A stretch of DNA of 64,000 bases from Thermoplasmatota archaeon (GCA_028279595.1 JANQNK010000006.1:1-64000), one strand, 5' to 3'; positions 4,264 to 34,844 are shown, counted from the stretch's first letter. The notes: generated by a model from the letters alone, not told the origin. Program-made: numbers and translations.

Positions 4264-6867
4264 TCAATCCCCCTTGATGGCATGGAGTTCGCGCTCAATG
4301 ACCGCGCACTCCTCGGGTTTGAGGGTCTTCGGGCTGAGCGGTACCAGGAAGATGATGTCCCGCTCGGAGATGGAGTCCTTCGTCCTACGTATCAGGTTGA
4401 CCACCGGGTCGAAGCCGTGGATGTGGACCAGGTACTCGATGCCGTCGAGCATGATGACGCACCGCTCCTTCTGGTTGATCCGCGACATCAACACCTCCAT
4501 GAGTTCCTCCAGGACGGAGGAGATGGTCCCATCCCCCTCCGACATGTCAGTGAGCCACATGACATCGGCATTCCCGAGGTCGTAGAAGTGCTTCAGCTGT
4601 CTCGGGTTCGTCCTCGAGATCAGCAGTCCCTGGGACTCGCCTATCGCCTGTGTGAAGAGCTTGTATGCCGGGTCCGGCTGGACCACCTCCAGGAGGTACG
4701 AGAATCCCCAGTCGAGTCCCCCCGGCACCACCTGGACTGATGGTTCCGGCTCGGGTTCGGACGGCTTCGGCTTCTTTGCCCTCTTCGGCTGCGGCCTCTC
4801 CATCTTCGCGGGTGTCAGGTAGTCCTTGAGGAGGTCCGTCGCCCTGGCGAGGTCGATGTCCTTCCCCTTCAGAGTGTGTTCGGCGTGGAGCTTCGAGAGC
4901 GCACCCTCCAGCTCCCTGATGCTGAGCCTGATGTTGGATGCTATGAACTCGATGACGTCTGCCTTCAACGGCAGTCCGCGCTCTGCGCTCTTCTTGATGA
5001 GAATGGCCGTTCGAAGCTCCAGCGAAGGATGCTGGATGTCGGCTATGAGGCCTCCCTCGAAGCGGGTCCTGAGCCTCTTCTCGAGGGTGGTCAGCTCCTT
5101 CGGGGGCCTGTCGGATGTTATGACGATCTGCTTACCCTCGGTGTGCATGTTGTTGAATATCTGGAAGAACATCTCCTGGGCCGACTCCTTTCCGGCCAGT
5201 ATCTGGATGTCGTCGATCAACAGGACGTCGGCGTCGTCGTACTTCCTCATCGCTCCGGAGTTCGGCATGCCCATCGATTGGACGACGTCGCTCGTGAACT
5301 CCTCGCTCGTCACGTATATCTGCCGGAGCTCCGGTTCGTTCTTCCTTATCCTGTTGTGGATGGCCCCCAGGAGGTGGGTCTTTCCCAGTCCCGAAGGGCT
5401 GTAGATGAAGAGTGGATTGTATGTCTGGCCCGGCGCCTGGGCCACGGCGAACGCGGCCGCTCTGGTGAACCTGTTGGTCTCGTCAACGACGAATGTGTCG
5501 AACGTGAAGCGCTTGAAGTGGTTGGGCACGGTCCCCTCGCGGAGCCGCGCCTTCGAGGCCTCGCCGAGGATCACGTCGGCCGGGACCTCCGAATCACCGT
5601 CCCCCATGGACCTCATCAGGCTCCGGACCCTCGGGCTCTTCTTCTTCCGAGGCCTGGGTTTTGCCTGTCTCTGCGGTGCCGGCTTCTTCGGTGCCTGCTT
5701 CTTGGCGGGCTTCTTCCTCTTCTTCGAGGGTTTGGCTGGGGGTCTCGCCTTCGGTGGAGCCTTCTTGGGAGCGGGTCGCCTAGCGGCCTGCGGCGGGGGT
5801 GTCCTCACCTTCCTCTTCGGCGCCTGTTTCCTGGCCGGCCTTCGCGTGTCCGGCCTGCTCGCTATCCCCTCGGACGCTGCCTTCAGTCCGAAGTGGTAGA
5901 CCTGTTTCTCGAGACCCGGGATGTTGACGGGATCGTAGGTCCTGTCGAGGAGGTTCTGCTTCTCCCTCTTGTAGGTCTCGGTGTCGATGTCCTCGATGAT
6001 CTTCCTGTGCTCCTTCAGCACGCTGATGTCCCTCTCGAAGAGCTTGAACTCCGTCTTGATTATCTCGATGTTCTCGGTCCGGATCGCGGTCTCGAGCCTG
6101 TCGACGATGTAACCCATGCTCCTCCAGTAGTGCATGAGCGCCTCGAACCTCGACATCTCGCCCCTGTTGTCGCTCTTCCGGGCCTCCTTGCGCCTCATCA
6201 TGATCTTGTTCTCTAGTCCGAGTATCTTCTTCCTGACAACGAGGGTCTTGTTGACGTGTTTCAGTATCTCCTCGATGTCGCCCTTCTCCTCGTCGAACCC
6301 TTCCGCGTCAAGCAGGTACAACCGGTCCCGAAGGTCCTTCATGATCGAGACGTTACGCTCGAAACTGTCGAACTCGGCCCTTATCTGGTCGATATCCGTG
6401 CCGCCGATGACCTCCTCGAGATCGTCGGTGTCCCATCCCTCGCGCCGCCACATGGCAATGCGCTTGTTCATCACGACCATCTCGTTCATCTTCCACAGCT
6501 CGGTGTTGACGAACGAGTCTCTGCCCTCCTTCAGCTTGCCGTCCTCCTCGTCCTCGACGATGGCGTCGAGGTCGTCCACGACATGGAGGTCGATGTTGCA
6601 CGTGTTCGCGTTGGCCTCCTCCAGGATCCTCGTGAACCCGGCATCAGAGGCGTAACGCTTGTCGAAGTTGGCGATAGCCCATGTGGGCCTCCCCTCGCGG
6701 AGGATGACATCGCCCTCGTAGTACTTGTCGAAGTTGTAGAAGTAGACCGCAACGTAGCCTTCGAACGAATCGTTCCTGCATTCCTCGAGAACCGAGAATA
6801 GGCTCTGTTCCTGCGTCGTCGTCGACTTGACGATCTTACCCACCGGGAGCCTTGTCTCCGAGGCCAT
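4264..6867 (-). CDS. Multidomain DnaA/Hda-family AAA+ protein: DUF2226/PATAN-like N-terminus, two helical repeats, K/P/A/R-rich linker, DnaA ATPase, C-terminal DUF835
   Basis: FTFDTFVV..N, YNPLFIYSPSGLGKTHLL, LLIDDIQ, ITSDRPP, RLRTRFEGGL, IRELEGAL; DUF835 signatures LLISRTNP, VMWLT, MLDGIEYL. Confidence 0.85.
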   Translation of the reverse strand: MASETRLPVGKIVKSTTTQEQSLFSVLEECRNDSFEGYVAVYFYNFDKYYEGDVILREGRPTWAIANFDKRYASDAGFTRILEEANANTCNIDLHVVDDLDAIVEDEEDGKLKEGRDSFVNTELWKMNEMVVMNKRIAMWRREGWDTDDLEEVIGGTDIDQIRAEFDSFERNVSIMKDLRDRLYLLDAEGFDEEKGDIEEILKHVNKTLVVRKKILGLENKIMMRRKEARKSDNRGEMSRFEALMHYWRSMGYIVDRLETAIRTENIEIIKTEFKLFERDISVLKEHRKIIEDIDTETYKREKQNLLDRTYDPVNIPGLEKQVYHFGLKAASEGIASRPDTRRPARKQAPKRKVRTPPPQAARRPAPKKAPPKARPPAKPSKKRKKPAKKQAPKKPAPQRQAKPRPRKKKSPRVRSLMRSMGDGDSEVPADVILGEASKARLREGTVPNHFKRFTFDTFVVDETNRFTRAAAFAVAQAPGQTYNPLFIYSPSGLGKTHLLGAIHNRIRKNEPELRQIYVTSEEFTSDVVQSMGMPNSGAMRKYDDADVLLIDDIQILAGKESAQEMFFQIFNNMHTEGKQIVITSDRPPKELTTLEKRLRTRFEGGLIADIQHPSLELRTAILIKKSAERGLPLKADVIEFIASNIRLSIRELEGALSKLHAEHTLKGKDIDLARATDLLKDYLTPAKMERPQPKRAKKPKPSEPEPEPSVQVVPGGLDWGFSYLLEVVQPDPAYKLFTQAIGESQGLLISRTNPRQLKHFYDLGNADVMWLTDMSEGDGTISSVLEELMEVLMSRINQKERCVIMLDGIEYLVHIHGFDPVVNLIRRTKDSISERDIIFLVPLSPKTLKPEECAVIERELHAIKGD

Positions 6868-10497: not shown

Positions 10498-11013
10498 ATG
10501 GGAGGCACGGAGTTCGAGAGGGAGCTCAAGGGGATACTCGAGGCCCGCGACGATGTCATGGAGAAGGTCGTCCGTTCCTGTTCCGACGATGAGACCACGA
10601 ACTACGCCCTGGTATCGGATATTCCGTTCATGGTCATCAGGGCAGCGGGTTCCTTCGGCGTGGACCTGGTCGCGTATAGACACGGCGTCTTTTTGCCCAT
10701 CGAGGTCAAGTCGTCCGGCAAGAAGCGTCTGTGGCTCGGATCCGAGCGACACGTCCAGCAGGTGGACTCGTTCCACGAGGCGTGCCGTACCTCCGGGGTG
10801 ATCCCCGTCTACGCGTTCAGGCTCAAGAAGCAGCGGGGCGACGCGTGGAGGATATTCACGGCCGAGGACGTGGACCCGACAGGGATGTCCCGATTGCTGT
10901 TCAACACACTCCCGAAGGTGACGAGGACCAAGGGTGACAGGGTGGTGCTTCCGTGGGAGGAGGGCATGCCCCTCAATGAGTTCATAGCCTACGTCCATTC
11001 ACTGCTCGAGTGA
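10498..11013 (+). CDS. hjc: Holliday junction resolvase
   Basis: G..FEREL, RAAGSFGVDLVA and IEVKSS PD-(D/E)xK motifs. Confidence 0.85.
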   Translation: MGGTEFERELKGILEARDDVMEKVVRSCSDDETTNYALVSDIPFMVIRAAGSFGVDLVAYRHGVFLPIEVKSSGKKRLWLGSERHVQQVDSFHEACRTSGVIPVYAFRLKKQRGDAWRIFTAEDVDPTGMSRLLFNTLPKVTRTKGDRVVLPWEEGMPLNEFIAYVHSLLE

Positions 11014-11016
11014 CGC

Positions 11017-11916
11017 TCACCGCATGTACTTTCGTCTGAGCTCGTTCGCAGCCCTGATGTAGGCCTGCGAACCGTTCGAGCCCATATCGTAGGTCGCGAT
11101 CGGGACACCCATGCTCTGGGCCTCGGCAACGCGCCTGTCCCTTGGCACAGCCGCCCGGAGGACGGTCCTCCCGAAGTGGTCCCTGACCTCATCGGCGATC
11201 TCGATGCTCAGTGGCGTCCTCTCGTACATCGTGATGAGTATCCCCTCGACCCTCAGGTCGGGATTCAGGTTGTCGCTGACGACCTTGATTATCCCCACGA
11301 GGTCCTTTATCCCCTCGAGGGCGAAGTATTCGCACTGGAGCGGTATCAGCACCCTGTCCGCGGCGACGAGGCTGTTGACGGTCAGCAGGCCCAGCGAGGG
11401 CGGTGTGTCTATGAAGATGAAATCGTAGTAGTCCTTGATCGGCGCCAGCGCGCTCCTCAGCTGAAGCTCCCTCTCGGGATGCTCCACGAGCTCCACGTTC
11501 ACCCGGGAAAGGTCGACGTTCGCGGGTATCAGATCGAGTCCCGGGAGGTCCGATGCAAGGAGGACGTCCTCGGCGGTCCCCAGGCCCAGCAGGACGTCAA
11601 GTATCGTCCCTTCGATCTCGGAACGCTCCACGCCCAGGCCGCTGGTCGAGTGCCCCTGCGAGTCCATGTCCACCAGCAGAACGGGATGCCCCATCCTTGC
11701 CAGCGTGGTCGCCATGTTCACGGATGTCGTCGTCTTGCCGACACCCCCCTTCCGGTTGGCCACTGCGATGACGACCGGATCATCCAGGTGGCGTTCTATC
11801 GGCCTCTGTTGAAGCATAATCTTGCGTCTCTTCGGTCTGCGCACGCGGCCTGTCAGCTGGACCGATTCCTGCTTGGGCTGTTCCTGTTTGCGTCTGAGCC
11901 ATCCCATCCCGATCAC
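11017..11916 (-). CDS. parA: ParA/Soj-family ATPase
   Basis: Deviant Walker A NRKGGVGKTT, DMDSQG, IDTPPSLG, PLQCEYFALEG. Alternative start at 11907. Confidence 0.92.
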   Translation of the reverse strand: MIGMGWLRRKQEQPKQESVQLTGRVRRPKRRKIMLQQRPIERHLDDPVVIAVANRKGGVGKTTTSVNMATTLARMGHPVLLVDMDSQGHSTSGLGVERSEIEGTILDVLLGLGTAEDVLLASDLPGLDLIPANVDLSRVNVELVEHPERELQLRSALAPIKDYYDFIFIDTPPSLGLLTVNSLVAADRVLIPLQCEYFALEGIKDLVGIIKVVSDNLNPDLRVEGILITMYERTPLSIEIADEVRDHFGRTVLRAAVPRDRRVAEAQSMGVPIATYDMGSNGSQAYIRAANELRRKYMR

Positions 11917-11917
11917 A

Positions 11918-14900
11918 TCACTTCTTTGACTTCCTGAGCCGTTCGATCTCCTTCAGGATCTTCTCGGCCTTGAGGTCCACTTCGCCGCCCGCCTTCGCGG
12001 GCTCTACGGACTCCGCAGCAACGACGACAGCTGCGGCGGGTTCCTTGGCGACCTGGGTCTTGACCGGTACACCGGTGCGGGCTATCGGTTTCGCCTCGAC
12101 GATGGCGCTCCGCTCCAGCTGGGCCTCCAGCTCGTGCACCTTCGACTGCAGCTTCCCGACCTCACCCTCCTTGTCCGCCAGTCTCTTCTTCAGGGTCGCC
12201 GAGCTCCTGTCCTTCGCGAACTCCTCGACCCGCTTCTTGAGCTCGTTCATCTTCTTTGTGTTGTCGGCCACCCGCTTGTCGGCCTCCTCGGAGACCTTCT
12301 TGATCTTCTTGTCGCGCTCCTCGATCTGCTTCTTGAGGGTATCGAGCTCCTTGTCGAGCTTGTCATGGTCCTTGCCCTTCGCCTTCGAGGTCTCTATCTC
12401 CGTTTTCAGGGTGACGATCTCCTTGGCGAGCTTCGCCTCGGACTTCTCCTTGACCGCCACGGTCGCCTTCAGTTCGTCGATCTCCTTGACCCTGCTGTTG
12501 GCGACCTCTTGTACCTTCTCGATCTTCTCTTTCAGGCCCGCCATGTCCGTGGACGAGTCCTTGAGCTTCTCCTTCTCTGCATTGAGCGCTTTAATGTTCT
12601 CCTTGAGCTTTGCGATCTCCTCGGCGGCGCCCTGGTCCGTCTTGGTCGCCTCCTGGAGCTTCAATTCGTAGTCCTTGATGAGCTTGGCCTTCTCGGCCTC
12701 GAAATTCTCGCTGGCAGATGCTCCATCCGCCATCTTCTTCTTGAGCTCGGTCAACTCGACCTCGTGCGCCTCCTTCATCTTCGAGATCGCGGCGCTCTTG
12801 GCCTCGTCGGTGGAGTCCATCTCCTTCTTCAGGTTCTCGAACTCCATCTTCAGGACGTCGGCCTCCTCGCGCTTCCTCTTGAGCTCCTTCTCGAGGTCAG
12901 CTGCTCTGTCGCCCGCCTTGTCGGCGGACTTGACGGCTCCCTCGAGCTCCGATATCGTGGCCTGCAGCTCCTTGATCCTCTCGTCGGACGATCCGACCTC
13001 CTTGACCCTCTCGTTAAGGTCTGCCTCGAGCTTACCGATCCTTTCCTGGTAGCCCTTGACCTCGGTCTCGAACTTGGCCTCACCCTCGCTCCTTGCGGAT
13101 ATCTGGGCCTCGAGCATGGAGACCCGCTCCTCGTAGGCCGTCACCTTCTTCTTCAGTTCGGCCTCCGACCTCGTCCTGGCGTTGAGCTCCTCGAGCATCT
13201 TCTCGGCCTTCTCCTCGGCGGCCTTCACGCCCTCGTCCGACTCCATCGACGCCTCGCGAACGGTGGATATCTCGTTCTCCAGCGCCTTGAGCCGCTCGGC
13301 CAGCGCCTCGGCCTTCGATCTCAGCGACTCCTCTTCCTTTGTCTTCTGGTTGAGCTTCTCCGTGAGTTCCGTGACGCGGCCCTCGGAGGCCTTGATCCTG
13401 TCGTCCGACTCCATCGTGGCGCCCCGCACCGCCTGGAGCTCCTTCTCCAATCCCTTGACGCGCTCCTCGCTCGCGGCGCTCCTGGTCTTGACGGCCTCCA
13501 GGGCGTTGGTCTTCTTGTTGAGCTCCTCGGACAGCTCCGTCTCCCTTGCCTGGAGCTCCTTGATCCTCTCTGCGTGCTCTCCGGCGCCCTCGGCCTTCGC
13601 CTCGAGGTCCTTCTCCAGTACCTTGATCCTCTCCGAGAAGGCTTCGACCTCCTTCTTAAGCTCGGCCTCGGTACCGGATTTGGCGTTCAGCTTCTCGGTG
13701 AGCTCCACTGTCCTTCGTTCTGCAGCCTTGATGTTCTCCTCGGATTCCATGGCAGCGTCGCGTACAGCTTCGAGCTCCTTCTCGAGGGCCTGTACCCGAG
13801 CCTCGGAGGCGCCGCTCTTGCGCTCGAGCTCCTTCTCACCTTCACGCTTCTTGTCGAGGGCCGTCTGGAGCCTCTCGACCCGCGCTTCGGCCTCCTGGGC
13901 CCGCTTCTCGATCTCCTCGGTCCCCTGGCCGATGTTCTGCATCTCGTTGGAAAGCTGTTTGACCCTGGCGTTCGCCGATTTCAGGTCCTCACGGAGCTTC
14001 GCCTCGGTCTTGGTACCCTCGTCGGTGAGCATCGACTGCTTCTCGAGCTCCTTCTCGAGGTTCTTGATCTTCCCGCCACGCTCGCGCAGGGCCTCCATGG
14101 CCGAGACGACCTCGCCCTCGAGCTCCTGTATCCTCTCCTTGGCAGCTCCCTCGGAGCCCTCGAGGGTCGATATCCTCTTCTCGAGCTCGACGGACGACTT
14201 CCTGAACTCCTCCGCCCTGTCCTCTGCCTTCTTGACCCTGGCGTCGGCGTCCTCGGAGCCCTTCGATTTCTGTGCGAGCTCCTCCTCGAGCTGTGCTATT
14301 CGCTCGTCCGACTTCTTGGACTTGAAAAGAAGGTCGTGCTGCAGCTTCTTCTGTCCGTTTATCTCGGTCTGAAGCTGTGCGACCTTGCCTTCGTGTGATT
14401 TGATGGAGCTCTCGAGCTCGATCCTGCCGTCCTGCTCGGACTTCACCTCGATCTCCAGCTCCTTGATCCTCTTCTCCCGGGACGCCACCTTCCCGGCGGC
14501 GGACGACTCTATCTCCTCGATCTTCCCGAGCTCCTCCTCGAGACCGGCTATGCGATCCTCGAGGGAGGTCGCCTTCCTCGATGCGTCGGTCGCCAATTTC
14601 TTCTGGTCCTCGAGCTTCCTCTCCAGGTCCGCCGCCCTCTTCTCGGCGGCCGCGACCGTTCCGCTGGACTCGGTGACGAGCTTCTCCCGCTTGTCGATCT
14701 CGTTCTGCAGTCCACTGACGGCCTTCTCGAGGTCTGCAACCTTCGCCGCGGCCTCTGCGGCGCTCTTCTCGGCCTTAACTACCTTTTCGTCAGCGGTCTT
14801 CGCAGCACCGTCGCGCTCCTCCTCGAGCGCCTTGACGGCGGTCTCGTGCTCCTGAGCCTTGTCCTCGAGCTGCGCTATCCTTTCCAGGTATGATCTTGAT

Positions 14901-17437
14901 TTCGCTTCGAGCTCCTTAGTGGTCGAGATCCGGGCCTCGAGCTCGGCCTCCAGCTTGGAAGCCTCCCCCCTGACCTTCTTGATCTCCTTCTCGAGCTTCG
15001 TATCCGCCTCGCCACGGGTGCTGAGCTCCTGCTCGACCTCCTTGACCCTCATCTCGGACTCCTTGACCGCCTTCTTCATCTCCGCGATCTTCTCGTCCCT
15101 CGATGCGATCTTCTTCTCCAGGGAGGCGATGTTCTTCGCATCCGTCCCGGCCTTGCCCTCGGCCTCGATGGCCGCGGCCCGGGTCCTCTCCACGTTCTTC
15201 TCTAGGTCCGCTATCTGCTTGTCCAGCTCGGCCGCCCTCTCGGCCTCTGCGGTACGTTCCTCGACGAGGTGTTCGAGCTCCGCTATCCGCTTCGAGTCGG
15301 TCTCTGCCCTGCCCTCCGCGTCGATGGCTGCACCGCGCGTCCTCTCGATGTCCTTCTCGAGGTCCGTCACACGGTCGACGGCGGACTCCGCCTCGCTGGT
15401 CGCTGTCTGCAGAAGGCCCTCGAGCTCAGCGATCCGCTCCCTGAGCTCCGTCCTCTTTTTGTCGTTGCGGGTCTTCGTCCTCTCGGCGTTCTTCTCGAGC
15501 TCTGCGATGCGCTCCTCGTACTCGGAGAGCTTGCCCGCTCCTGCGGACTTCTCCCGTTCAATTCCCTTCTCGAGCCTGGCGATGGTCTTCTCGTACTCCG
15601 AGCTCCGGCCGATCGCCTCGTCGCACTCGGTCCTCATTCCCTTGAGCTCTGTCTCCATCTCGGAGACCCTGGTCTCCAGGTCGACGTTCTTCTCGATGGC
15701 CTCGTCCTTCGCTGCGGACTCCTTCTCGAGCCTGCTCTCCTGCTTCCGGAGGGTCTTTTCGAGGTCGGCGATGCGGGTCTCGGTCTCGGCTCCCGCTGTG
15801 CTCGTGCTCTCCAGTTCGCCCTCCAGCTCGGCGACACGACCCTCCAGAGTGCGGACGTTGCCTCGGGCCTCCGACCGCTCCGAACGGGCCTTCTCGAGTG
15901 ACGTCTCGAGCTTCGTGATGGTCTTCTCCTGCTCCGCGACCGTGCTCTCGGCGACGGAACTGTCCTTGTTGAGGGACTTGAGGTCCTTTTCGAGGCCTGC
16001 CACGGTCTCCTCGAGGGTCTTCGCCTGCTTGGTGGCCTCGCTCCTCTCGGATCGCGCCTTCTCGAGGGAGCGCTCCAGCTTGACGATCCTCTTCTCGTAC
16101 TCGGTCGCCATCTCGACGGCCTCCTCGCTCCCCTTTTCGCTGGAAGCGACGGTGGCCTCGAGGTCGACGATACGCTTGTCGTACTCGTCCCTCTGCTTCT
16201 CGTGGGTCTTGACCTCCTTCTTGAGGTCCTTGACCTCTCCCTTCAGTTCCTCTATCGTGACTGCGTACTTCTCGGCCTTGGACTCGAGCCCCTCGGCCGC
16301 CTTCGCCCTCGCGTCAAGCTCGGCCTCGAGCTCCTTGGCCCTTTCCTGGACCTCCTCGAGCTCCTCGCCCTCGCGGGACCCGGCCTCCTCGACCTTGCTG
16401 AGGTCCTTCTCGAGCTGCTTGATCCTCTCCTCGTAGGTGGAGGCCTTCTCCTCGTGCTTCTTGACCCTGGAGGCCCACTCGTCCTCCAGGCTTGCGATCT
16501 TGTCCTCGTAGTCCGCCTTCTTCTCGGCGTCCTCATCGGCAGCGGAGGCACTCCTCTCGACCTCCTTTTCAAGCTCCGCGATCCTGTCCTTGTACTCCTT
16601 CTCGAGCTTCTCCAGTGCGGACTCATGCTCCTTCCTCATGGCCGCGGCGTCGACCTCACCGCCCTTCTCGAGCTCATCCTCCAGGGTCTCGATCCTCGCC
16701 TCGTAGGAGCGCTTCGCCTCGAGCAGTCCGGCCTCGATCCCTTTCCGGGACTCCAGGTCCTTCTCCAGCTCGGCGACCCTGTCCTCGAGCTCGTCTCCGC
16801 TGTCAGCTCGCGATTCGAGTTCCTTCTCGAGCCTCTTGATCTCGGACTTGAGCTCCTCCTTCTCATCCTCGAACCCGCTCTTCAGGTCCTCGATCTCCTC
16901 GGGGGAGACGCCCGGCTCCTTCATCTCGGCCTTGAGCTCATTGAATTCGTTGGTTCTCGTCTCCAGCTCGCGGAGGATGCCCTGCCGCTCGAGCTCCTTG
17001 ACCCCGAGTATGCGTTCCAATTCGCGCATCCTGTCGTAGAGGTCCTCCCATCCCTCGAGATTGGATTGGAGCTTCTCCACCTCCTTCTCGGCGGACTTCT
17101 TCTCCTCCCTGAGCCCTTCCATCTCCTGCTCGATCTCCTTCTCCTTCTCGGACTGGACCTCGTTGAGCTTGTCGAGCTCCTTCTTCAGGTCCTTGATCTC
17201 ATCCTCGCTCTCCTCGAGCTTCTCGGTGGACTTCGAGAGCTTCTTCTCCAGGTCCTTGATGGACTTGTCCTTGGTGGATGAATCGGACCTCGCGGCCTCG
17301 AGCTCGGCCTGCAGGTCCTCGATGGTCTCCTCCTTGGAACCGAGGTCGGTCTCCAGTGTAGAGATCTCGTCCTCGATGTGCGAAAGGAAGTCCTTGATCG
17401 TCGGTGCCTTCTTCCCGGAGTTCTCGTCGCCTGACAT
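11918..17437 (-). CDS. Giant (1839 aa) coiled-coil protein
   Basis: E/K/A/L-rich heptads along the whole length; no Walker A/B or SMC hinge seen; start overlaps the upstream stop (TAATG at 17435-17439). Confidence 0.85.
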   Translation of the reverse strand: MSGDENSGKKAPTIKDFLSHIEDEISTLETDLGSKEETIEDLQAELEAARSDSSTKDKSIKDLEKKLSKSTEKLEESEDEIKDLKKELDKLNEVQSEKEKEIEQEMEGLREEKKSAEKEVEKLQSNLEGWEDLYDRMRELERILGVKELERQGILRELETRTNEFNELKAEMKEPGVSPEEIEDLKSGFEDEKEELKSEIKRLEKELESRADSGDELEDRVAELEKDLESRKGIEAGLLEAKRSYEARIETLEDELEKGGEVDAAAMRKEHESALEKLEKEYKDRIAELEKEVERSASAADEDAEKKADYEDKIASLEDEWASRVKKHEEKASTYEERIKQLEKDLSKVEEAGSREGEELEEVQERAKELEAELDARAKAAEGLESKAEKYAVTIEELKGEVKDLKKEVKTHEKQRDEYDKRIVDLEATVASSEKGSEEAVEMATEYEKRIVKLERSLEKARSERSEATKQAKTLEETVAGLEKDLKSLNKDSSVAESTVAEQEKTITKLETSLEKARSERSEARGNVRTLEGRVAELEGELESTSTAGAETETRIADLEKTLRKQESRLEKESAAKDEAIEKNVDLETRVSEMETELKGMRTECDEAIGRSSEYEKTIARLEKGIEREKSAGAGKLSEYEERIAELEKNAERTKTRNDKKRTELRERIAELEGLLQTATSEAESAVDRVTDLEKDIERTRGAAIDAEGRAETDSKRIAELEHLVEERTAEAERAAELDKQIADLEKNVERTRAAAIEAEGKAGTDAKNIASLEKKIASRDEKIAEMKKAVKESEMRVKEVEQELSTRGEADTKLEKEIKKVRGEASKLEAELEARISTTKELEAKSRSYLERIAQLEDKAQEHETAVKALEEERDGAAKTADEKVVKAEKSAAEAAAKVADLEKAVSGLQNEIDKREKLVTESSGTVAAAEKRAADLERKLEDQKKLATDASRKATSLEDRIAGLEEELGKIEEIESSAAGKVASREKRIKELEIEVKSEQDGRIELESSIKSHEGKVAQLQTEINGQKKLQHDLLFKSKKSDERIAQLEEELAQKSKGSEDADARVKKAEDRAEEFRKSSVELEKRISTLEGSEGAAKERIQELEGEVVSAMEALRERGGKIKNLEKELEKQSMLTDEGTKTEAKLREDLKSANARVKQLSNEMQNIGQGTEEIEKRAQEAEARVERLQTALDKKREGEKELERKSGASEARVQALEKELEAVRDAAMESEENIKAAERRTVELTEKLNAKSGTEAELKKEVEAFSERIKVLEKDLEAKAEGAGEHAERIKELQARETELSEELNKKTNALEAVKTRSAASEERVKGLEKELQAVRGATMESDDRIKASEGRVTELTEKLNQKTKEEESLRSKAEALAERLKALENEISTVREASMESDEGVKAAEEKAEKMLEELNARTRSEAELKKKVTAYEERVSMLEAQISARSEGEAKFETEVKGYQERIGKLEADLNERVKEVGSSDERIKELQATISELEGAVKSADKAGDRAADLEKELKRKREEADVLKMEFENLKKEMDSTDEAKSAAISKMKEAHEVELTELKKKMADGASASENFEAEKAKLIKDYELKLQEATKTDQGAAEEIAKLKENIKALNAEKEKLKDSSTDMAGLKEKIEKVQEVANSRVKEIDELKATVAVKEKSEAKLAKEIVTLKTEIETSKAKGKDHDKLDKELDTLKKQIEERDKKIKKVSEEADKRVADNTKKMNELKKRVEEFAKDRSSATLKKRLADKEGEVGKLQSKVHELEAQLERSAIVEAKPIARTGVPVKTQVAKEPAAAVVVAAESVEPAKAGGEVDLKAEKILKEIERLRKSKK

Positions 17438-19035
17438 TAGGATCCCTCCTCCATCATCTTCTGAAGTACACGTTCCCTGGCCACCAGGTCCACCTTCTTC
17501 TCCTCGAGCCGGATCCTGATCCGCTTAGCCTCATCTATCAGGGCCGCGACCTGTGATAGAAATATCTGCTGGCGCTCCTTGAACGCCTTGATCTTGAACT
17601 TGAGGTCCGCCTCCCTCTCCTCGAGGTTCTGCATCTCCGATTCCTTGAGGGCCACATCGACCGACCGACGGCGGATGTCCGCCTCGCGCTTGTCGAGCTC
17701 CGTGGCGAACCGTGAGAGCTCCTCGGACCGTAACTGGAGGTTCATCTCCTTCTCGCCGAGCCTTCCCTCCTTGTAGTCGATGTCGGGGCCTACCTGTTCG
17801 AACGTCGGCATCGGTCCCGGAACGGGCGAAGGCATCGGTACATCGGTCGTGATGCCCTTCTCCCGAGTTCGGAGGTTGTCCTCCCAGATCGCGAGGGTCT
17901 CCTCACGCCTGTCGAGGGCGTCCTCGAGCCTGGCGATCTCGAGCTGCTTCCTGGAGACCTCCTCCACCTCGACCTCCCGGACCATCATCTCGACCTCCTT
18001 CCGGATGAGCTCCTCCCTCGCCATCTGTTCCTCCTTCTTGAGGTCCTGCTCCATCTGCCGCAGCCCCTCCTCGCGGGCCTGCAGCAGCTCCTCGCGGCGC
18101 TCTATCTCCTCGACGAGAGCATTCCTCGTCGTGAGCTTTCCCGCGACCTGCGTCTGCATCGTGTTGATCTCGGCGATCTTCGCTTTGAGCTCCACCTCGC
18201 GGATGTCTATCTCGTCACGCTTCCGCTTGAACTCTTCGTACTTCGCCTCGTCGATTATGATCTCGACCTCCTTCTTCAGGAGGTCCTCCTTTATCGCATC
18301 GAGCTCCTGCTCCTTCTTCCGCATCGCTGCGTCCCTCTCCTCGAACGCGGCACGCATCTTGTCGAGCTCGTCCCTTCCGGCAACGAGCTTCTCCTCGATA
18401 TCCCTCTCGCGCTCCTCGAGGGCGTGCTCCCGGGCGGCAAGTTCCGCCGTTCCTGCTGCATCGCCGACGGGTGCCGATTCGATATCACGCCGGAGGTCCT
18501 CGATCTCTGCCTCCTTTCGTGCGAGGTCCCTCTCCCTCTCGGCGAGGTACTTCGTCTTCTTGTCGATGTCCGAGGTCGTGGTCCGTGTGACGTTGTCGGA
18601 TATCTTGTCCATGTTGTTCTTAATTTCGACGACGAGGTCCTCGAACATCGCGACGAGTTCGCTCTTCGTCTTCTCCCGACCGTCCTTGCGGAGGCGCTTC
18701 TCCGTCTTCTTGAGCTCCTCCTTCTTCCGCTCGATCGCCTCCATCATCTCGGAGATCTTGGTCGGCGGGACCTCCTTCACAGAGACGACGCGGATGTTCG
18801 TTTTGCCCTTGAGCTTGAGGTTGGGCGATATCGTATCGAGAAGCGACTCACCGACGCCGGGAACATTGAGCAGTTGCTTCTTCCGTGTGATCGGACCGTT
18901 GTCCTTGACGTACTTCACTATGGCTATCGCCTTCTTCTCGCCGAGGCCCGGAAGTACGAGGAAATCCTCTACCTTCGCCTCGTTGATGTTGATCGATCCT
19001 ATGACCTCTATCGGCGTAGCTCCCTTGTCTTCCAT
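17437..19035 (-). CDS. ComEA-like helix-hairpin-helix domain plus coiled-coil protein
   Basis: ININEA..EDFLVLPGLGEKKAIAIV...NGP...QLLNVPGVG, then about 450 aa of coiled coil; no signal or TM segment. Confidence 0.85.
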   Translation of the reverse strand: MEDKGATPIEVIGSININEAKVEDFLVLPGLGEKKAIAIVKYVKDNGPITRKKQLLNVPGVGESLLDTISPNLKLKGKTNIRVVSVKEVPPTKISEMMEAIERKKEELKKTEKRLRKDGREKTKSELVAMFEDLVVEIKNNMDKISDNVTRTTTSDIDKKTKYLAERERDLARKEAEIEDLRRDIESAPVGDAAGTAELAAREHALEERERDIEEKLVAGRDELDKMRAAFEERDAAMRKKEQELDAIKEDLLKKEVEIIIDEAKYEEFKRKRDEIDIREVELKAKIAEINTMQTQVAGKLTTRNALVEEIERREELLQAREEGLRQMEQDLKKEEQMAREELIRKEVEMMVREVEVEEVSRKQLEIARLEDALDRREETLAIWEDNLRTREKGITTDVPMPSPVPGPMPTFEQVGPDIDYKEGRLGEKEMNLQLRSEELSRFATELDKREADIRRRSVDVALKESEMQNLEEREADLKFKIKAFKERQQIFLSQVAALIDEAKRIRIRLEEKKVDLVARERVLQKMMEEGS

Positions 19036-19398
19036 CTAGGCGACCTCCCGGTCGATCGTGTGTCCGAAGAACGGACCCTCTCCCGCAAAGTTGATCGCAT
19101 GCCGAATCGGGGAAAACTTCGAAATGATTTCAAAATAAAAGACCGAGGCTTCGGTCAGGTCGACCCATGAAACCATTCCCCCTTTCCGGACCATTCAACC
19201 ACCTTGCGGGCGACAAAACATTATGGATTTTCCCTTTTATTAATGTATCGATTAATACTGTATTAGGAGAAAATTCTTTTTCTAGGAAAATTTTTCCATA
19301 TTTACAGATGTTTTTTCATAGCCAGTACTTTTTTTTTCTGCCGTTTTTCTCCACTGATGAACGTATTTATTATCTAAAATATCGAATTTATCAAATCA

Positions 19399-19538
19399 TT
19401 TTTTCTGTCTTTTTTTTCTTTTTTTTTTATTATTTTTTCCCATTTTTTCTACTTTTCCCTCTCATTTTTCCATCCTTTTTTTCCGAATTTTTTCACATTT
19501 TTTTCTTTTTTTTTTGTAGTTTTTTTCCTCCTTTTTTT
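19399..19538. repeat. Array of 13 T-runs with about 11-bp phasing inside an AT-rich intergenic region
   Basis: T4-T10 runs ending at 19404, 19417, 19428, 19438, 19448, 19456, 19469, 19482, 19493, 19504, 19515, 19526 and 19538. Confidence 0.8.
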
Positions 19539-19723
19539 CTGGAAATCACTGGATCATTTCCTAACAAATTATCCTGTTTTTCAGGTTACATCATTCGAAC
19601 TACTTACCGTTCCTTGAGGAAAATTCACATGCTCGAAACAGGCTAATATGATCTCAGATCGGTGTCTATCTCAGGCATCGAATTCAATTAGGATTAAATA
19701 CCCATAGCAGGATTCCGCGGCAT

Positions 19724-19797
19724 GGGCCTGTAGCTCAGCCCGGCAGAGCATCTGGCTTTTAACCAGGTGGTCGGGGGTTCAAATCCCTCCAGGCCCG
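19724..19797 (+). tRNA. tRNA-Lys (anticodon UUU), no intron, CCA not encoded
   Basis: Acceptor stem GGGCCTG/CAGGCCC; anticodon arm TCTGG-CTTTTAA-CCAGG; T loop GTTCAAATC; TTAAATA box about 25 nt upstream. Confidence 0.97.
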
Positions 19798-19921
19798 TAG
19801 CGGTTCTAAACGAATTTAATTTAAGGTACGGGCCTATCGGAAACGAACCCCGGATAGAGCGGGGTTGTTCGGAAATCAACTTTCATCGTAATCCTTAAAC
19901 CCCCCGTCACTATGCATCCCC

Positions 19922-21172
19922 ATGAGCGGGTCGATGATCGAACAGATATTGCAGAATCATTCAACCGATGATGTATCCCCGGGAGAGACGATATGGCTCG
20001 ATATCGACGTCAGGTCGGCGCGTGATTTCGGCGGAGCGAACGTCGTCAAGAACCTGATGAAATGGTATCCCGACGACCCCGTGCTCGATCCCGCGAAGAC
20101 CTTCTTCACATTCGACTGCGTCGTTCCCGCGAACAACATCCCCTATGCTAACAATCAGCAGATCTGCCGCGATTTCGCAAGACAGCACGGCGTCGAGGTC
20201 TACGACGTGGACAGCGGTATCGGCAGTCACGTGATGATCGAGAACGGGATCGCCGTACCCGGGGCGACGATAGTCGGGACCGACAGTCATCTCAACCTTC
20301 TCGGCGCTATCGGTGCGTTCGGTCAGGGGATGGGCGATCAGGACATCGCCTTCGCCTTCAAGACGGGACGGACTTGGTTCGAGGTCCCTAGGACCATGCG
20401 GATCGACGTCTCGGGAAGGCCCGCGAAGGGATCGACGGCGAGGGACCTCACCCTCGCGATCGTGGGCGAACTCGGTTCCCGGGGTTGCCTCGGCAAGGCC
20501 GCCGATTTCGACGGGCGCGCGGTGAAGGGACTCACGATCGACGGACGCATCACGCTATCGAGCATGGCGACCGAGATGGGTGCCGTGGCAGGATTGATAC
20601 CGCCCGACAGGAGCGTCATCGAGTACTGCAAGACCAGGGCGGCAGGACCGTTCAAAGCTGTCAATCCGAAGGACGGTGCGACCTACGATGAGGAGCGGAA
20701 CGTCGATGTCTCGGACCTCGGTCCGATGATAGCCCGCCCCGGACGGCCGGACGATGTGGTTCCCGTGAGCGAAGTGGGGGACGTCCCCATCGATTCGGCC
20801 TTCATCGGTTCCTGTACGAACGGCAGGTACGATGATATCACGAGGATCGCGGAACTCGTGGACGGAAAGCACATCCACAGGGACGTTTTCGCGATGGTCG
20901 TTCCCGCGACGAACGACGTCTACGGCCGCCTTCTCATGAGGGGGGACATCCAGACACTTCACCAGGCCGGATTCATCGTCATGAACCCCGGCTGCGGCGG
21001 CTGTGCCTCCGGACAGGCCGGAATGACCGGCGAAGGACAGGTCCAGGTCAGCACATCGAACAGGAACTTCAAGGGTAAGCAGGGTGCTGGCGACACGTAC
21101 CTTGCCTCGCCCGAGACCGTTGTCGCATCGGCCCTCGCCGGAAGGATAGTGACCCTCGAGGAGGTGGCCTGA
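19922..21172 (+). CDS. Aconitase-family (LeuC/HacA-like) large subunit, copy 1
   Basis: GTDSH, IGSCTNGR, PGCGGC, STSNRNFKGKQG, YLASP. Confidence 0.9.
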   Translation: MSGSMIEQILQNHSTDDVSPGETIWLDIDVRSARDFGGANVVKNLMKWYPDDPVLDPAKTFFTFDCVVPANNIPYANNQQICRDFARQHGVEVYDVDSGIGSHVMIENGIAVPGATIVGTDSHLNLLGAIGAFGQGMGDQDIAFAFKTGRTWFEVPRTMRIDVSGRPAKGSTARDLTLAIVGELGSRGCLGKAADFDGRAVKGLTIDGRITLSSMATEMGAVAGLIPPDRSVIEYCKTRAAGPFKAVNPKDGATYDEERNVDVSDLGPMIARPGRPDDVVPVSEVGDVPIDSAFIGSCTNGRYDDITRIAELVDGKHIHRDVFAMVVPATNDVYGRLLMRGDIQTLHQAGFIVMNPGCGGCASGQAGMTGEGQVQVSTSNRNFKGKQGAGDTYLASPETVVASALAGRIVTLEEVA

Positions 21173-29221: not shown

Positions 29222-30355
29222 TCACCTGATGAAGTCTATGCCGAACTCGTTTCCGAGCGAGGAACCGAAGTTCACTCCCGGGCCGAGGATCTGCTCGGAC
29301 TTGACGCCTGTCAGGATCACCATGACCCTTATCGTCTGGTCCAGAGTGGGGTCTATCATGGCCCCCCAGATTATCCTCGCGTTCGGGTTGATCCTCTTGT
29401 TGACCTCCTCGGCAACGGTCTGGGCTTCCTCGACGGTCATGCCCGGTCCGCCCGTCACATTGACGAGTGCGCCGGTGGCATAACTGATGTCGACGTCCAG
29501 AAGCGGTGAGTTCAGGGCCTCGTTGAGCGCTGTCAGGGCCTTGTCCTCGCCGGAAGCCTCTCCAAGACCGATCATCGCGACGCCGCCGCCCTTCATGATG
29601 GTCTTCATGTCGGCGAAGTCGAGGTTGACCAGTCCCGGCTTGGTGACGATCTCGGTGATGCCCTTGATAGAGCGCATCAGGATCTCGTCCGCAACCTTGA
29701 ATGCATCGTTCAGAGCGAGCCTCGGAACGAGCTCCAGGAGCCTGTCGTTCGGTATGACGATAACGGTGTCGGCCACGTTCCTCAGCTTCTCGAGGCCGTA
29801 CTCGGCGTTCTCGGACCGCACGATCCCCTCGGCCTTGAACGGCCGGGTGACGATCGCGATGGTCAGGGAGCCGTCGTCCTTGGCGAGCTTCGATACGACC
29901 GGAGCGCTTCCGGTTCCCGTACCGCCGCCGAGGCCGCAGGTCACGAAGACGATGTCCGATTCGGCCACCGACTTTCGCAGCTCCTCCTCGCACTCGAGCG
30001 CGCCCTCTTCGCCGACCTGCGGCAGGGAGCCCGCACCAAGTCCGCGGGTGAGCCTCTTCCCGACGAGGATCTTGTGCGGCGAGTGCACCGTCAACAGATG
30101 CTGCGCATCGGTGTTGAGGGCATAAAGGTCCGCGCCCGCGATCCCCTCTTCCGTTATACGGTTGATCGTATTGCTTCCCGCCCCGCCGCAACCGAAGATC
30201 TTGATCCTGGTCTTCAGTTTCATCAGAACTTCCATGATCTCCCGGTCTTCCGTGGCCGTCTCGTGGACGACGGGTGGAGCCGGGGTCGTTGTCACTGCTG
30301 GCTCGGGAGCAACTCCCCTATTCCTCTTTAAGGCATCTTCGATTATAGATCTCAT
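29222..30355 (-). CDS. ftsZ: Cell division protein FtsZ
   Basis: [30 protein letters not shown]. Confidence 0.96.
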
Positions 30356-30736
30356 GGTTGATTCACCCATCCCAGTCTGTATTTCCCGTAACGCCCTATG
30401 GGTATATATACCTTACTATGTCTCATTTTCCCATCTAGCGCCTGTAAAACACACTTTCTTTTTATGCATTAAACAAACGATAGAGACCAAATCCAAATCA
30501 TTGATATTATTTATAGGATAATTTACAAAGATATTATCATAATCTCGATTCATATCGTACCAAATCTCTACATATTTCAAATAATAATCTCTTTTTCACA
30601 ATCATTAATCTGCTATTATTATTTTGAGAATTAATCAAAACAGGATTCACGAAATAATTCGATTTTCTCTTAAAAAATTTCTCATAATAACGGTTACACA
30701 AAAGCCTTTTATAATGAACCTCTGTTATTGTAATGC

Positions 30737-30754
30737 GCTTGTGTGATAACAAGC
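30737..30754. promoter_or_regulatory. Palindromic operator candidate in the RHH gene promoter
   Basis: GCTTGT-N6-ACAAGC about 23 nt downstream of TTTTATAA (30707-30714). Confidence 0.4.
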
Positions 30755-30792
30755 CTATCTTGAAATGCACATCGATTACAGGAGACACCTCG

Positions 30793-31143
30793 ATGGCCGG
30801 ATCGCAGAAGAAAACACACTCCGTACGTCTCGACGATGACGACATGCACGAGCTGAGCGCTCTCGCCGTATCGGAAGGCAGGAGCGTCTCTGACGTGATC
30901 CGCGAGTCCGTACATACATATCTCGAGATGAAGAGCAAGCGCAAGTTCAGCGTCGAGCTCACCCCCGATGCGTTGGAATACCTCCGTTGGATGATAGAGC
31001 GTGGATACATCAACGACATGGAATACGCGGTGAACAACGCGGTTGAACGCTACCTGACCTCGAAATCCCTGGAGATCGAGGAAAGGAAGTTGAGGCGGCA
31101 GAGACTGGACGAATGGGCCAGCGAAGAGCGTGTCCGGTTGTAG
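30793..31143 (+). CDS. Tandem ribbon-helix-helix (CopG-like) protein
   Basis: HSVRL...SVSDVIRESV..YL plus a second FSVEL...G....AVNNAV.RYL unit; GGAG RBS. Confidence 0.75.
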   Translation: MAGSQKKTHSVRLDDDDMHELSALAVSEGRSVSDVIRESVHTYLEMKSKRKFSVELTPDALEYLRWMIERGYINDMEYAVNNAVERYLTSKSLEIEERKLRRQRLDEWASEERVRL

Positions 31144-32001: not shown

Positions 32002-33039
32002 ATGAAAGCAGGAATCGTGACCTACGGTGCGTACGTTCCCTCCTTCCGCATAGCCGCGGAGGAGATAGCGGACACCTGGGGAGAGAACGGACCCGCGATA
32101 TCGAGGGGCCTTAACGTCAAGGCCAAGTCGGTGCCCGCTCCGGACGAGGACTCCATAACCATATCTGTCGAGGCATCCCGCAACGCATTGAGGCGGCGGG
32201 CGATCGACGCTTCGAGGATAGGTTCTGTCTTCGTCGGATCGGAATCCCCGCCCTACGCAGTCAAGCCGAGCGCGACGGTGCTCGCGGCCGCGATCGGGGC
32301 GACGCCCGACATGACCGCTGCGGACCTGGAGTTCGCATGCAAGGCCGGTACGGCCGGAATGCAGGCTGCCCTCGGAATGGTCGAGGCGGGAATGGTCGAC
32401 TACGGCCTCGTCGTCGGTGCGGACACATCGCAGGGCCGTCCCGGGGACCCGCTCGAGTACACCGCCTCCGCAGGCGGTGCCGCATACATACTCGGTGCGG
32501 ACGATCCGATCGCCACGTTCAATGACATCTACTCCTACACGACCGACACGCCGGACTTCTGGAGGAGGGACCTCCAGCCGTATCCGAGCCACGGCGGCCG
32601 GTTCACGGGGAGCCCTGCATACTTCAAGCATATCACGGCCACAACGACCACCGTGATGGAGCGCATGGGAACCTCTCCGGAGGACTACAAGTACGCGATT
32701 TTCCACCAGCCGAACGGCAAGTTCCCTCTCAGGATCGGAAAGAAGCTCGGCTTCTCCCCGGAACAGGTGGAGACAGGTCTTCTGGTCCCCTTCATCGGGA
32801 ACACCTATTCTGGTTCCATGATGCTCGGTCTGACAGCCGTTCTCGATGCCGCGTCCCCAGGCGACAGGATACTCGCGGTCTCGTACGGTTCCGGTGCGGG
32901 TTCGGACGCCTTCGACATCACCGTGACCGACTCCATTGAGAAGATGAGCGAAGCCCCGACCACGATGCAGCAGGTCGAGGGGGGGCGGATGATATCGTAC
33001 GGCGTATACGCCAAGTTCAGACGGAAGATCAGGATGTGA
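32002..33039 (+). CDS. Hydroxymethylglutaryl-CoA synthase (archaeal)
   Basis: VGSES.PYAVKP, EFACKAG, DFWRR, FHQPN.KFP, GNTYSG, SYGSGAG. Confidence 0.93.
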   Translation: MKAGIVTYGAYVPSFRIAAEEIADTWGENGPAISRGLNVKAKSVPAPDEDSITISVEASRNALRRRAIDASRIGSVFVGSESPPYAVKPSATVLAAAIGATPDMTAADLEFACKAGTAGMQAALGMVEAGMVDYGLVVGADTSQGRPGDPLEYTASAGGAAYILGADDPIATFNDIYSYTTDTPDFWRRDLQPYPSHGGRFTGSPAYFKHITATTTTVMERMGTSPEDYKYAIFHQPNGKFPLRIGKKLGFSPEQVETGLLVPFIGNTYSGSMMLGLTAVLDAASPGDRILAVSYGSGAGSDAFDITVTDSIEKMSEAPTTMQQVEGGRMISYGVYAKFRRKIRM

Positions 33040-33043
33040 TCGC

Positions 33044-34210
33044 GTGAGGAAGGTTGCAGTTATCGGGATCGGCATGACGCCCTTCGGGGAGCTGTGGGAC
33101 AGGTCGCTCAGGACCCTCGGGATCGAGGCCGGGCTCAACGCCATGGTGGATGCCGGAATAACGTCCGAGGAGGTCGATGCTCTCTACGTCGGCAACATGT
33201 CCTCGGGACGTTTCACGAACCAGGAGCATATATCGGCGGTCATTGCGGACCACACGGGACTATCCGCGAGGAACCTGCCTGCCATCCGTGTGGAGGCCGG
33301 CGAGGCCTCCGGTGCTGTCGCGTTCAGGGACGCTTACCTCTCTGTCGCCTCCGAGGTCTACGACATCGTCGTGGTCGGAGGGGCCGAGAAGATGACCGAC
33401 GTCAGCGACGCCATGGCCCACGAGATCTTCGCCACCAGCGTCGATCAGCAGTGGGAGGTGTTCCTCGGCGCCACGGTGCCATCGCTCTACGCGATGATGG
33501 CCCGGCGTCACATGCACGAGTACGGGACGACGAAGGAGCAGCTCGCATCCGTCGCAGTGAACGCTCACAAGAACGGATCGAAGAATCCCAACGCGCAGTT
33601 CAAGAACCAGATCTCCGTGGAAGCGGCCGCGAAGGCGGGAATGGTCGCGTCCCCGTTGGGTATGCTCGACTGCGCTCCGATATCCGATGGTGCCGCAGCT
33701 CTCGTGCTCGCACCACTGGACATTGCCAAGAGGATGACCGACCACCCAGTCGTGATAGCGGGCAGCGGTGTCGCCACCGACACCATCAGCCTTCACCACA
33801 GGGAATCGCTCACCACCATGAGATCGACATCCGTTGCCGCGGACCTTGCGTACAGGCGGTCCGGAATGACACCCGAACACGTCGACATCGCGGAGGTGCA
33901 CGACAACTTCACAATATCCGGGATCATGGCGGTCGAGGACCTCGGGTTCGTCGAGAAGGGACAGGGCGGTCCTGCCTTCGAGAGCGGGAAGTTCGACATC
34001 GAGGGCGACCTCCCGGTGAACACGTCCGGTGGTCTCAAGGCACAGGGACAGCCTCTCGGTGCTATCGGCATCGCGCAGGTGGTCGAGGTGACAAGGCAGC
34101 TCCGCGGGGACGCGGGCGACCGCCAGGTCGACTCGCCCCAGGTGGGTCTGACCCAGTGCGTAGGTGGAACAGGCGGTACTTCCGTCGTACATGTCATGAA
34201 GGTGATCTGA
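33044..34210 (+). CDS. Archaeal/SCP2-type thiolase homologue with catalytic residues substituted
   Basis: Thiolase fold motifs (GAEKM, N..AQF, ISDGAAA, PVNTSGGLK), but EAGEASG, HDNF and GQP at the catalytic positions. Confidence 0.88.
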   Translation: MRKVAVIGIGMTPFGELWDRSLRTLGIEAGLNAMVDAGITSEEVDALYVGNMSSGRFTNQEHISAVIADHTGLSARNLPAIRVEAGEASGAVAFRDAYLSVASEVYDIVVVGGAEKMTDVSDAMAHEIFATSVDQQWEVFLGATVPSLYAMMARRHMHEYGTTKEQLASVAVNAHKNGSKNPNAQFKNQISVEAAAKAGMVASPLGMLDCAPISDGAAALVLAPLDIAKRMTDHPVVIAGSGVATDTISLHHRESLTTMRSTSVAADLAYRRSGMTPEHVDIAEVHDNFTISGIMAVEDLGFVEKGQGGPAFESGKFDIEGDLPVNTSGGLKAQGQPLGAIGIAQVVEVTRQLRGDAGDRQVDSPQVGLTQCVGGTGGTSVVHVMKVI

Positions 34211-34608
34211 TGGGCGTTGCAAGGTTTTGGCGTGAGAACAGGACCAGGTACAATCTGATCGGCAACAGGTGCCCTACGTGCGAGAAGGCCTTCTTCCCGC
34301 CGAGGGAGCTGTGCCCGACCTGTCACAGGCAGAGCATCGGCAAGATGGTGGAGATCCAGTTCTCCGGCAAGGGCAAGATATACAGTTACTCGGACGTCCA
34401 CGACGCCCCGACCGACTTCTCCGACCAGAGGCCCTACATCATGGCCATCGTCGAGCTCGACGAGGGTCCAAGGATCACGGCGCAGATCGTCGACGCGATC
34501 GACGGTGTCGAGATAGGCATGCCTGTCGAGATGGTGTTCCGTAAGATACGCGAGGAGAGCCCGGAGGGCATCATCCACTACGGTTACAAGTTCAAACCGG
34601 CCCTCTAG
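34210..34608 (+). CDS. DUF35 Zn-ribbon/OB-fold protein
   Basis: CPTC..FFPPR..CPTC, GMPVEMVFRK, YGYKF; coupled to the thiolase gene. Confidence 0.92.
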   Translation: MGVARFWRENRTRYNLIGNRCPTCEKAFFPPRELCPTCHRQSIGKMVEIQFSGKGKIYSYSDVHDAPTDFSDQRPYIMAIVELDEGPRITAQIVDAIDGVEIGMPVEMVFRKIREESPEGIIHYGYKFKPAL

Positions 34609-34844
34609 CCGTGCAGGATGCCCTTGACGGTCACTGGTGAATAGACCGCCTTCATCTCGGAGAGGAGGTTCTCGTAGTACGCCAGGTGCTTCTTGATCAC
34701 CTGGCGGCGCTCCTCGAGGGCTCTCCGCTCCTCACCCATCGCCTCCTTTATCTTGCGGGCGTTCACCTGCAACATCCTCTTCCATCGTTCGTACTCCTTC
34801 AGGGTCTCGACGATGGCGTCGCAGTTGACCTCCTCCGCAGGCAT
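34605..34844 (-). CDS. Small helical hypothetical protein
   Basis: 79-aa coiled-coil-like ORF with TTTATA upstream on the minus strand. Confidence 0.55.
   Translation of the reverse strand: MPAEEVNCDAIVETLKEYERWKRMLQVNARKIKEAMGEERRALEERRQVIKKHLAYYENLLSEMKAVYSPVTVKGILHG

Follow-up and report, generated by a model that had tools for sequence, protein, structure and literature searches.

The window analysed here, a stretch of 64,000 nucleotides from a Thermoplasmatota archaeon, encodes a ParA-type ATPase directly behind two genes for long coiled-coil proteins, and the locus raises the question of what such a ParA might position, and with which partners. To our knowledge, the placement of the chromosome and of the division plane in archaea that divide with FtsZ is largely an open problem, and the few described systems come from Sulfolobales and Haloferax. 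The three genes lie on the minus strand. Gene 1 (17437..19035, 532 aa) encodes a cytoplasmic ComEA-type (HhH)2 domain followed by a coiled coil, gene 2 (11918..17437, 1839 aa) a giant coiled-coil rod, and gene 3 (11017..11916, 299 aa, with a GTG start) a divergent Soj-type ParA. These open reading frames and their junctions, described in a first-pass annotation of the same DNA, are confirmed: genes 1 and 2 overlap by one nucleotide in TAATG, and genes 2 and 3 are separated by one nucleotide in TGA-T-GTG. One contig derived from sequencing reads, which may stem from the source sample itself, covers positions 10500-20500 with no base differences over the part compared, from which 134 nt (19399-19532) were left out, the length there being in agreement. 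As the annotation had stated, no ParB, SegB or AspA-like gene adjoins the ParA gene at the locus, its neighbours being the two rods and a convergent hjc gene, and no small site-specific DNA-binding partner of the SegAB, AspA-ParBA or HpaAB type was found beside it there.

The closest named relative of the host is a Thermoplasmata MAG, and its order is represented in our collection by three genomes that are 73-86% complete, namely the window's genome (G000, 86% complete, 2.29 Mb), G001 and G002. The whole triplet is conserved on three contigs from two families, one contig each for the window, L037 (531/1779/295 aa) and L041. The last belongs to the second family and encodes a 560 aa protein with two HhH domains, a rod of 1196 aa, and ParA. 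The rod-ParA pair is found in five lineages, its junction being present also in G001, L042 and L205-L207, and the gene 1-gene 2 junction is present also in L200. The tight coupling that was claimed for the operon holds within the window's genus but not elsewhere: the rod and ParA genes are 1 nt apart within the genus, as against 4 nt for L042, 60-100 nt for G001, about 136 nt for G002 and more than 300 nt for L205, with gaps of up to 100-380 nt outside the genus. Triplet order and strand are kept between families, and hjc and priL lie downstream wherever the contig reaches. The remaining flanks vary, the surroundings with the DnaA-like gene, tRNA and ftsZ being rearranged; within the window's genus, a tRNA-Lys lies upstream of the operon.

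Database searches delimit this distribution. A profile of the ParA clade, which the three order members helped to build, finds these members at E <= 6e-150 among 401 genomes of the phylum, with the next best match at 3e-101, and by this profile search no clade member was found in the 398 other Thermoplasmatota genomes. Full-length matches to gene 1 among 1.8 billion representatives are the order's proteins only, and its alignment found no match in metagenomes, where a ParA motif scan led to one further locus. The ESM Atlas gave no usable match for gene 1, and only generic coiled coils for gene 2. Judged by these searches, all three genes are restricted to one clade, a small uncultured Thermoplasmatota order, in which every sampled member has one locus. 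The G+C content is that of the host and the locus is stable, and a horizontal island was rejected on these grounds. No description of the triplet was found in the literature; it is real, conserved and apparently undescribed, a variant of the ParA/MinD positioning systems in archaea.

HhH domains bind DNA without sequence specificity, and in the chromokinesin Kid such a grip is joined to a coiled coil. The HhH domain of gene 1 (residues 14-73; 18817..18996, minus strand; HHH_3, E 2e-13) has ComEA 8dss as its best fold match, albeit a weak one (E 8e-3), and a weak fold match to the tail of KIF22/Kid (PDB 2edu, E 0.47). By alignment, G30 and K34/K35 correspond to G60 and K62/K63 of V. cholerae ComEA, which are required for DNA binding (PMC3879209, PMC9747964). 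K35, the equivalent of the DNA-contacting K63, is invariant in four of four orthologues (identities of 78%, 71% and, for the second family, 32%), which is consistent with the earlier proposal that the domain would grip DNA non-specifically. In the predicted structure, the helical part of gene 1 consists of four segments that total about 400 residues and are interrupted by a Pro-rich stretch at 391-420; the first-pass annotation had put the coiled coil at roughly 450 aa. No TM segment was found in the products of genes 1, 2 or 3, nor an export signal in that of gene 1. Within the coiled coil, the beta-branched motif KEVEIIIDE (18241..18282, minus strand) is near-invariant despite the 32% overall identity, making it a candidate partner-binding site. 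A related family of SAP, HhH and coiled-coil proteins, from another Thermoplasmatota family, shares the strand that follows the HhH domain and has a degenerate first hairpin, with no ParA adjacent. In family f12 (L154, L155, L158, L161 and L163), such proteins have tandem SAP-like, HhH and coiled-coil repeats, and their genes overlap another coiled-coil gene, whose product has zinc ribbons at its ends; no ParA is adjacent there.

The ComEA-type domain, together with the upstream tRNA-Lys, could point to a competence or defence module, in which gene 1 would be a ComEA-like DNA receptor or ParA would be recruited to immunity, as ParA NTPases often are (bioRxiv 10.64898/2026.10.19.760177). Gene 1 however carries no signal or TM segment and ComEC was not found in the three order genomes, there is no nuclease or effector, the G+C content is host-like, one locus is present in every sampled member, and the searched passages of that paper mention neither Thermoplasmata nor such a gene layout. 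We consider this explanation disfavoured already, and very improbable.

Gene 2 has a heptad period of 3.50 and is free of proline from residue 180 to 1783. Its length and the absence of Walker A and LSGG motifs agree with its initial description as a 1839-aa coiled coil without ATPase head or hinge, and its family matches cover coiled-coil parts only. An SMC or Rad50 identity was rejected, since the protein has no ABC ATPase head, hinge or hook and smc and rad50-like genes are encoded separately. The computed extended length of about 260 nm is close to the 270 nm first suggested, but this length is not conserved, the 1196 aa of the other family corresponding to about 150 nm. Identity to the L037 rod is 65%, and the rod of the second family is barely alignable; what is kept across families is a short N-terminal rod segment and a C-terminal helix. 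This helix, of the KAEKILKEIERL type (11918..11977, minus strand), follows a Pro/Ala/Val linker and is present in five of five lineages, and we regard it as a candidate ParA-contact peptide. The rods of L037 and of the window show a strong repeat of 28 residues, matched in 0/500 heptad shuffles and accompanied by a modest charge peak at 28/3; the repeat is also seen in L206 and is absent from L041. Such a repeat fits a filament-forming rod, yet duplication alone can produce it.

Other long charged helical proteins of the window's genome, of 1812, 900 and 733 aa, are encoded at C1:63100-68538, C14:72479-75181 and C18:357198-359399, and an 8223-aa surface-type protein at C1:16641-41312. Several of the long helical or surface proteins of this genome end in an acidic linker and a short amphipathic helix.

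Since the genome encodes several other giant coiled coils, rods are common in the host lineage, and the three genes could be stable or co-regulated neighbours rather than one machine, with gene 1 serving as a scaffold for chromatin or repair, gene 2 being one lineage-specific rod among several, and the partners of ParA encoded elsewhere. The HhH-coiled-coil pair of f12 without ParA, the rod-ParA gap of more than 300 nt in one lineage, and the equal synteny of hjc and priL are all compatible with this. Order and strand are nevertheless kept across families despite rearranged flanks, all three genes share one clade restriction, stop and start codons overlap in the genus, and the gap is only 4 nt in a distant lineage. 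Mere neighbourhood is, in our judgement, quite unlikely.

Gene 3 matches AAA_31 (E 4e-60), has a Soj fold (TM 0.94-0.95, by target, to Soj/ParA), and is 40-47% identical to solved Soj proteins, with intact Walker motifs. The features of the ParA/MinD superfamily are present, i.e. the deviant Walker A motif, signature Lys and catalytic Asp, with K56, K61 and D85 invariant in all eight members of the clade. These eight were aligned with 127 other Soj-type proteins, comprising the 97 best non-clade matches (bacterial where named), 27 from Thermoplasmatota and 3 fused proteins. The switch-I Asn (D-x-Q-G-N) is replaced by His (H89) in 8/8 clade members and is Asn in 127/127 controls. MinE is thought to activate MinD through switch-I N45 (PMC6803595), and we infer that H89 occupies the equivalent position. 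An identity as MinD itself was rejected (TIGR01969, 97 bits against a cut-off of 202), gene 3 ending with the core helix, without a C-terminal membrane-targeting helix.

The two DNA-binding sites were mapped onto gene 3 through T. thermophilus Soj, whose arginine positions we take to be the equivalents of R189 and R218 of B. subtilis. R189 and R218 are DNA-binding residues of Soj (PMC3778016). The first-pass annotation had emphasised a Soj-like ParA that retains both arginines, in the motifs TMYERT and PRDRR; these are present and R233 and R262 align with the two Soj arginines, which is true for the window's genus and not for the family. In all eight clade members one residue is missing immediately ahead of the R189 site, and PRN has become PRD. 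Arg occupies that site in only 4/8, all from the window's genus, compared with 122/127 controls, and in the second family both Soj arginines are absent. Together with the switch-I His, these changes weaken the argument from retained arginines. However, the R218 site is R in five, K in two and N in one (basic in 7/8) and the preceding residue is Arg in 7/8, and therefore the DNA-binding surface is remodelled rather than clearly lost. By these characters gene 3 is not a plain Soj, and the triplet ParA forms a separate long branch with a clade support of 76 and no close bacterial sister (quick tree). Its basic N-terminal arm (11776..11916, minus strand) has 11-18 K/R in 45-55 aa, with a W-L/M-R-R-R/K motif in most clade members; residues 1-28 are of low confidence or disordered in the predicted structure and residues ~31-47 ordered.

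These changes leave room for a polar or membrane landmark, where ParA would have left the nucleoid, its basic Trp arm would sit on the membrane or pole, and the rod would act like Scy or TipN, with archaellum placement, or anchoring of the chromosome at the pole via the HhH protein, as example outputs. The deletion at the R189 site and the change of PRN to PRD in 8/8 members, the loss of both arginines in the second family and the conserved W-L/M-R-R arm point this way. Archaellins are present in all three order genomes and MinD was not found there; the motility machinery of Haloferax is positioned by a MinD protein (bioRxiv 10.1101/2020.04.03.021790), and Scy brings ParA to tips in Streptomyces (PMC3718342). 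Against it, three of four arm sequences have a low hydrophobic moment (0.14-0.18), none of the three proteins has a TM segment, the archaellum genes are on another contig, and the R218 site is mostly basic. We hold a landmark role to be unlikely, if worth keeping in mind.

Upstream of the operon lies a phased A-tract array (19250..19620, minus strand) with an 11.1-bp period, predicted to be bent DNA. It is the densest A/T-tract window of the 2.29 Mb, with 18 tracts per 300 bp against 12 for the next best, and was matched in 0/500 shuffles. The L037 upstream array has the same period and a different sequence; in the second family, the region upstream was not found to contain one. Nearer to gene 1 is a conserved leader (19036..19290, minus strand) with an inverted repeat (19238-19257) and a conserved block of ~130 nt. 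It includes a 52-codon frame abutting gene 1 (19036-19194, minus strand) that stays open over the same length in three species, is poorly conserved in its middle, and may be a uORF or a constrained leader. Rfam matched only tRNA and nothing in the leader, where support for an RNA structure is weak (z -2.2; double changes in 3/45 pairs from 3 sequences). A replication origin at the array was rejected, as no ORB match occurs there and ORB-like boxes are found elsewhere, one of them near a cdc6-like gene on contig C5. The region of C5 at 32325-42823, with this ORB-like box, the cdc6-like gene, smc and a downstream ScpA-like gene (recognised by eye and missed by the Pfam ScpA search), is a candidate origin region in its own right.

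The array or the inverted repeat could be the cis site of a centromere-based segregation system, its shape read by oligomeric HhH heads, with the rod being spindle-like. No other array of the genome is as strong, its period is strict and its character is kept in a second species, and the sites of SegAB and AspA-ParBA lie directly upstream of their own operons (PMC12139799, PMC13722703). The second family has no such array that could be found upstream, however, HhH domains lack sequence specificity, and the ORB-like box, cdc6-like gene and smc are on another contig; moreover, it is a second ParA that groups with standard Soj. Judged from sequence, the array could equally well be a bent promoter element or a centromere, and segregation through a centromere appears improbable for this operon.

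Exactly two ParA/MinD-family matches occur in each of the three order genomes. The second ParA (G000 C1:77681-79552) is fused to helical repeats, and the fusions measure 623-931 aa (G000 C1:77681-80314, L027; G001, L021; G002, L020). A gene with a GRGL peptide lies directly upstream of it in G000 and G001 and is not adjacent in G002, where instead a gene for a coiled coil of 1148 aa is located at a distance of 1.8 kb. Among the other Thermoplasmatota Soj genes sampled, most precede a gene whose product starts with such a ParB-like peptide. In the quick tree, the fused second ParA clusters with the Soj proteins usual in the phylum (SH-aLRT 88) and is the more likely counterpart of this standard Soj, from which, together with its GRGL partner, we infer that the triplet is a derived second system. 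The positioning of the chromosome proposed in the first-pass annotation loses ground for the same reason: with a second ParA that has a ParB-like peptide partner, segregation of the main chromosome is less likely to be the task of the triplet. Across loci L168-L188 and L026 (families f9, f16, f18, f45 and f6), the gene after Soj encodes a protein that opens with a ParB-like KxALGKG-type peptide and has a charged, apparently helical body, with no ParB motif seen by eye; this pair is apparently a separate ParA system without ParB, of wider occurrence.

Neither a GRGL-type activating peptide nor an N-terminal basic peptide was found in genes 1 and 2 of three species. No ParB family match was obtained with PF02195 in G000 or with TIGR00180 in the three genomes, which bears out the first-pass annotation on this point, and MinD, CheW and ComEC were likewise not found in the three; as the genomes are 73-86% complete, we speak of these as not found rather than absent. 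Each order genome has one FtsZ. The ftsZ gene lies 10 kb from the operon here and is not adjacent in relatives. Within the window (29222-31143) it is divergent from a gene for a small ribbon-helix-helix-like regulator, recognised by eye, a pairing also seen in G001. The archaellum-type gene cluster of G000 is at C4:135337-142046, a contig other than the triplet's.

Soj regulates DnaA in Bacillus. The window contains, at 4264-6867 on the minus strand, a gene that joins a DnaA AAA+ domain of bacterial type to DUF835, and such DnaA domains occur in 39/201 Thermoplasmatota genomes (<=8 matches each), largely in Soj-bearing families. The DnaA-like gene is linked to the triplet in one family and on a different contig in the second.

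Among known systems, PomXYZ of Myxococcus xanthus offers the closest parallel in layout, with a conserved ParA-like ATPase and two divergent, length-variable coiled-coil partners with Pro/Ala-rich linkers. PomZ is conserved and PomX and PomY are divergent (PMC7993993), and activation by PomY depends on a short helix within its disordered C-terminal region (bioRxiv 10.1101/2025.12.01.691545), resembling the candidate C-terminal helix of the rod. The PomXYZ-like reading offered initially fits, a ParA-like ATPase being encoded with two coiled-coil partners and ParB not being found. The triplet differs in being archaeal, in its partners of 532 and 1200-1840 aa, in its HhH DNA-binding head and in its switch-I His, and what its partners conserve is a helix at the C-terminus, with no basic N-terminal peptide like residues 1-22 of PomX. 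Lacking that peptide and having the extra head, it is not filed here as a PomXYZ member, the Pom proteins having been compared by description.

ParABS (Soj/ParA-Spo0J/ParB) shares with gene 3 the Soj fold, the 40-47% identity and the intact Walker motifs, whereas the triplet has no GRGL peptide in its partners, no ParB that could be found, a remodelled R189 site and the N-terminal arm. Streptomyces also pairs a giant coiled coil with ParA (PMC3718342), but its ParA is the ParABS ATPase, while here a dedicated second ParA lies beside the rod, together with an HhH rod. SegAB, AspA-ParB-ParA and HpaAB (PMC12139799, PMC13722703) are likewise archaeal ParA systems with non-canonical partners, SegAB and AspA also having an upstream cis element; their described partners bind site-specifically and long coiled coils are unmentioned in both papers, in contrast to the non-specific HhH domain on a rod. 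ComEA (PMC3879209, PMC9747964) has the (HhH)2 fold and the lysine equivalent to K35, yet gene 1 is cytoplasmic, without export signal or membrane anchor, in genomes where ComEC was not found. KIF22/Kid serves as an analogy only, given the weak fold match and a triplet without kinesin motor.

We propose that the triplet is a lineage-specific second positioning module of the ParA/MinD type, in which ParA would place a nucleoid-tethered scaffold much as in PomXYZ; we put the probability of this reading at roughly 0.45. In the ParA/MinD family, ATP-bound dimers attach to a matrix, from which a partner peptide sets them free (PMC11407121). The two rods would co-assemble into one large scaffold, which the HhH heads may tether to the nucleoid, replacing part of Soj's usual DNA grip. 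Binding and triggering of the ParA dimer would fall to a short peptide that is conserved, in all likelihood the rod C-terminal helix or the gene 1 motif, and the ATPase cycle would bring the scaffold to a defined site. As output we expect, most probably, nucleoid placement and/or marking of the FtsZ division plane, in cells where MinD was not found.

This proposal is favoured because gene order is conserved next to hjc and priL, the genes are clade-restricted, and a conserved ParA accompanies divergent partners that are kept at their ends. It also draws on the invariant K63 equivalent, the basic R218 site (7/8) and the switch-I Asn-to-His change, and on genomes with one FtsZ in which ParB, MinD, CheW and ComEC were not found, as well as on the 28-residue repeat in three rods. 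It is weakened by the fact that ftsZ is not adjacent, that the partners have neither a GRGL nor an N-terminal basic peptide, and that other giant coiled coils are encoded. The f12 HhH pair without adjacent ParA, the gaps of 100-380 nt and a second family without repeat or array weaken it further, as do the incompleteness of the genomes (73-86% complete) and the small number of lineages known, five. A bolder version of the same proposal, which we consider doubtful, sees a ParB-free and Min-free archaeal apparatus, with a myosin-rod-like filament (150-260 nm subunits) tied to the chromosome by HhH heads and switched by ParA via a rewired switch I, possibly nucleating on the bent A-tract locus.

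The reach of these findings is limited by a narrow range, that of one small uncultured order. Within it, the triplet is a testable Thermoplasmatota candidate with defined mutable motifs, namely K35 of the HhH domain, the terminal helix of the rod and H89 of ParA, and the invariant switch-I His is a natural variant for studying partner-triggered hydrolysis in the ParA/MinD family. The filament apparatus, if true, would have no known counterpart, being a tether of cytoskeletal kind that serves segregation or the choice of division site. If the PomXYZ-like reading is true, the design of a ParA with two coiled coils would have arisen in archaea too.
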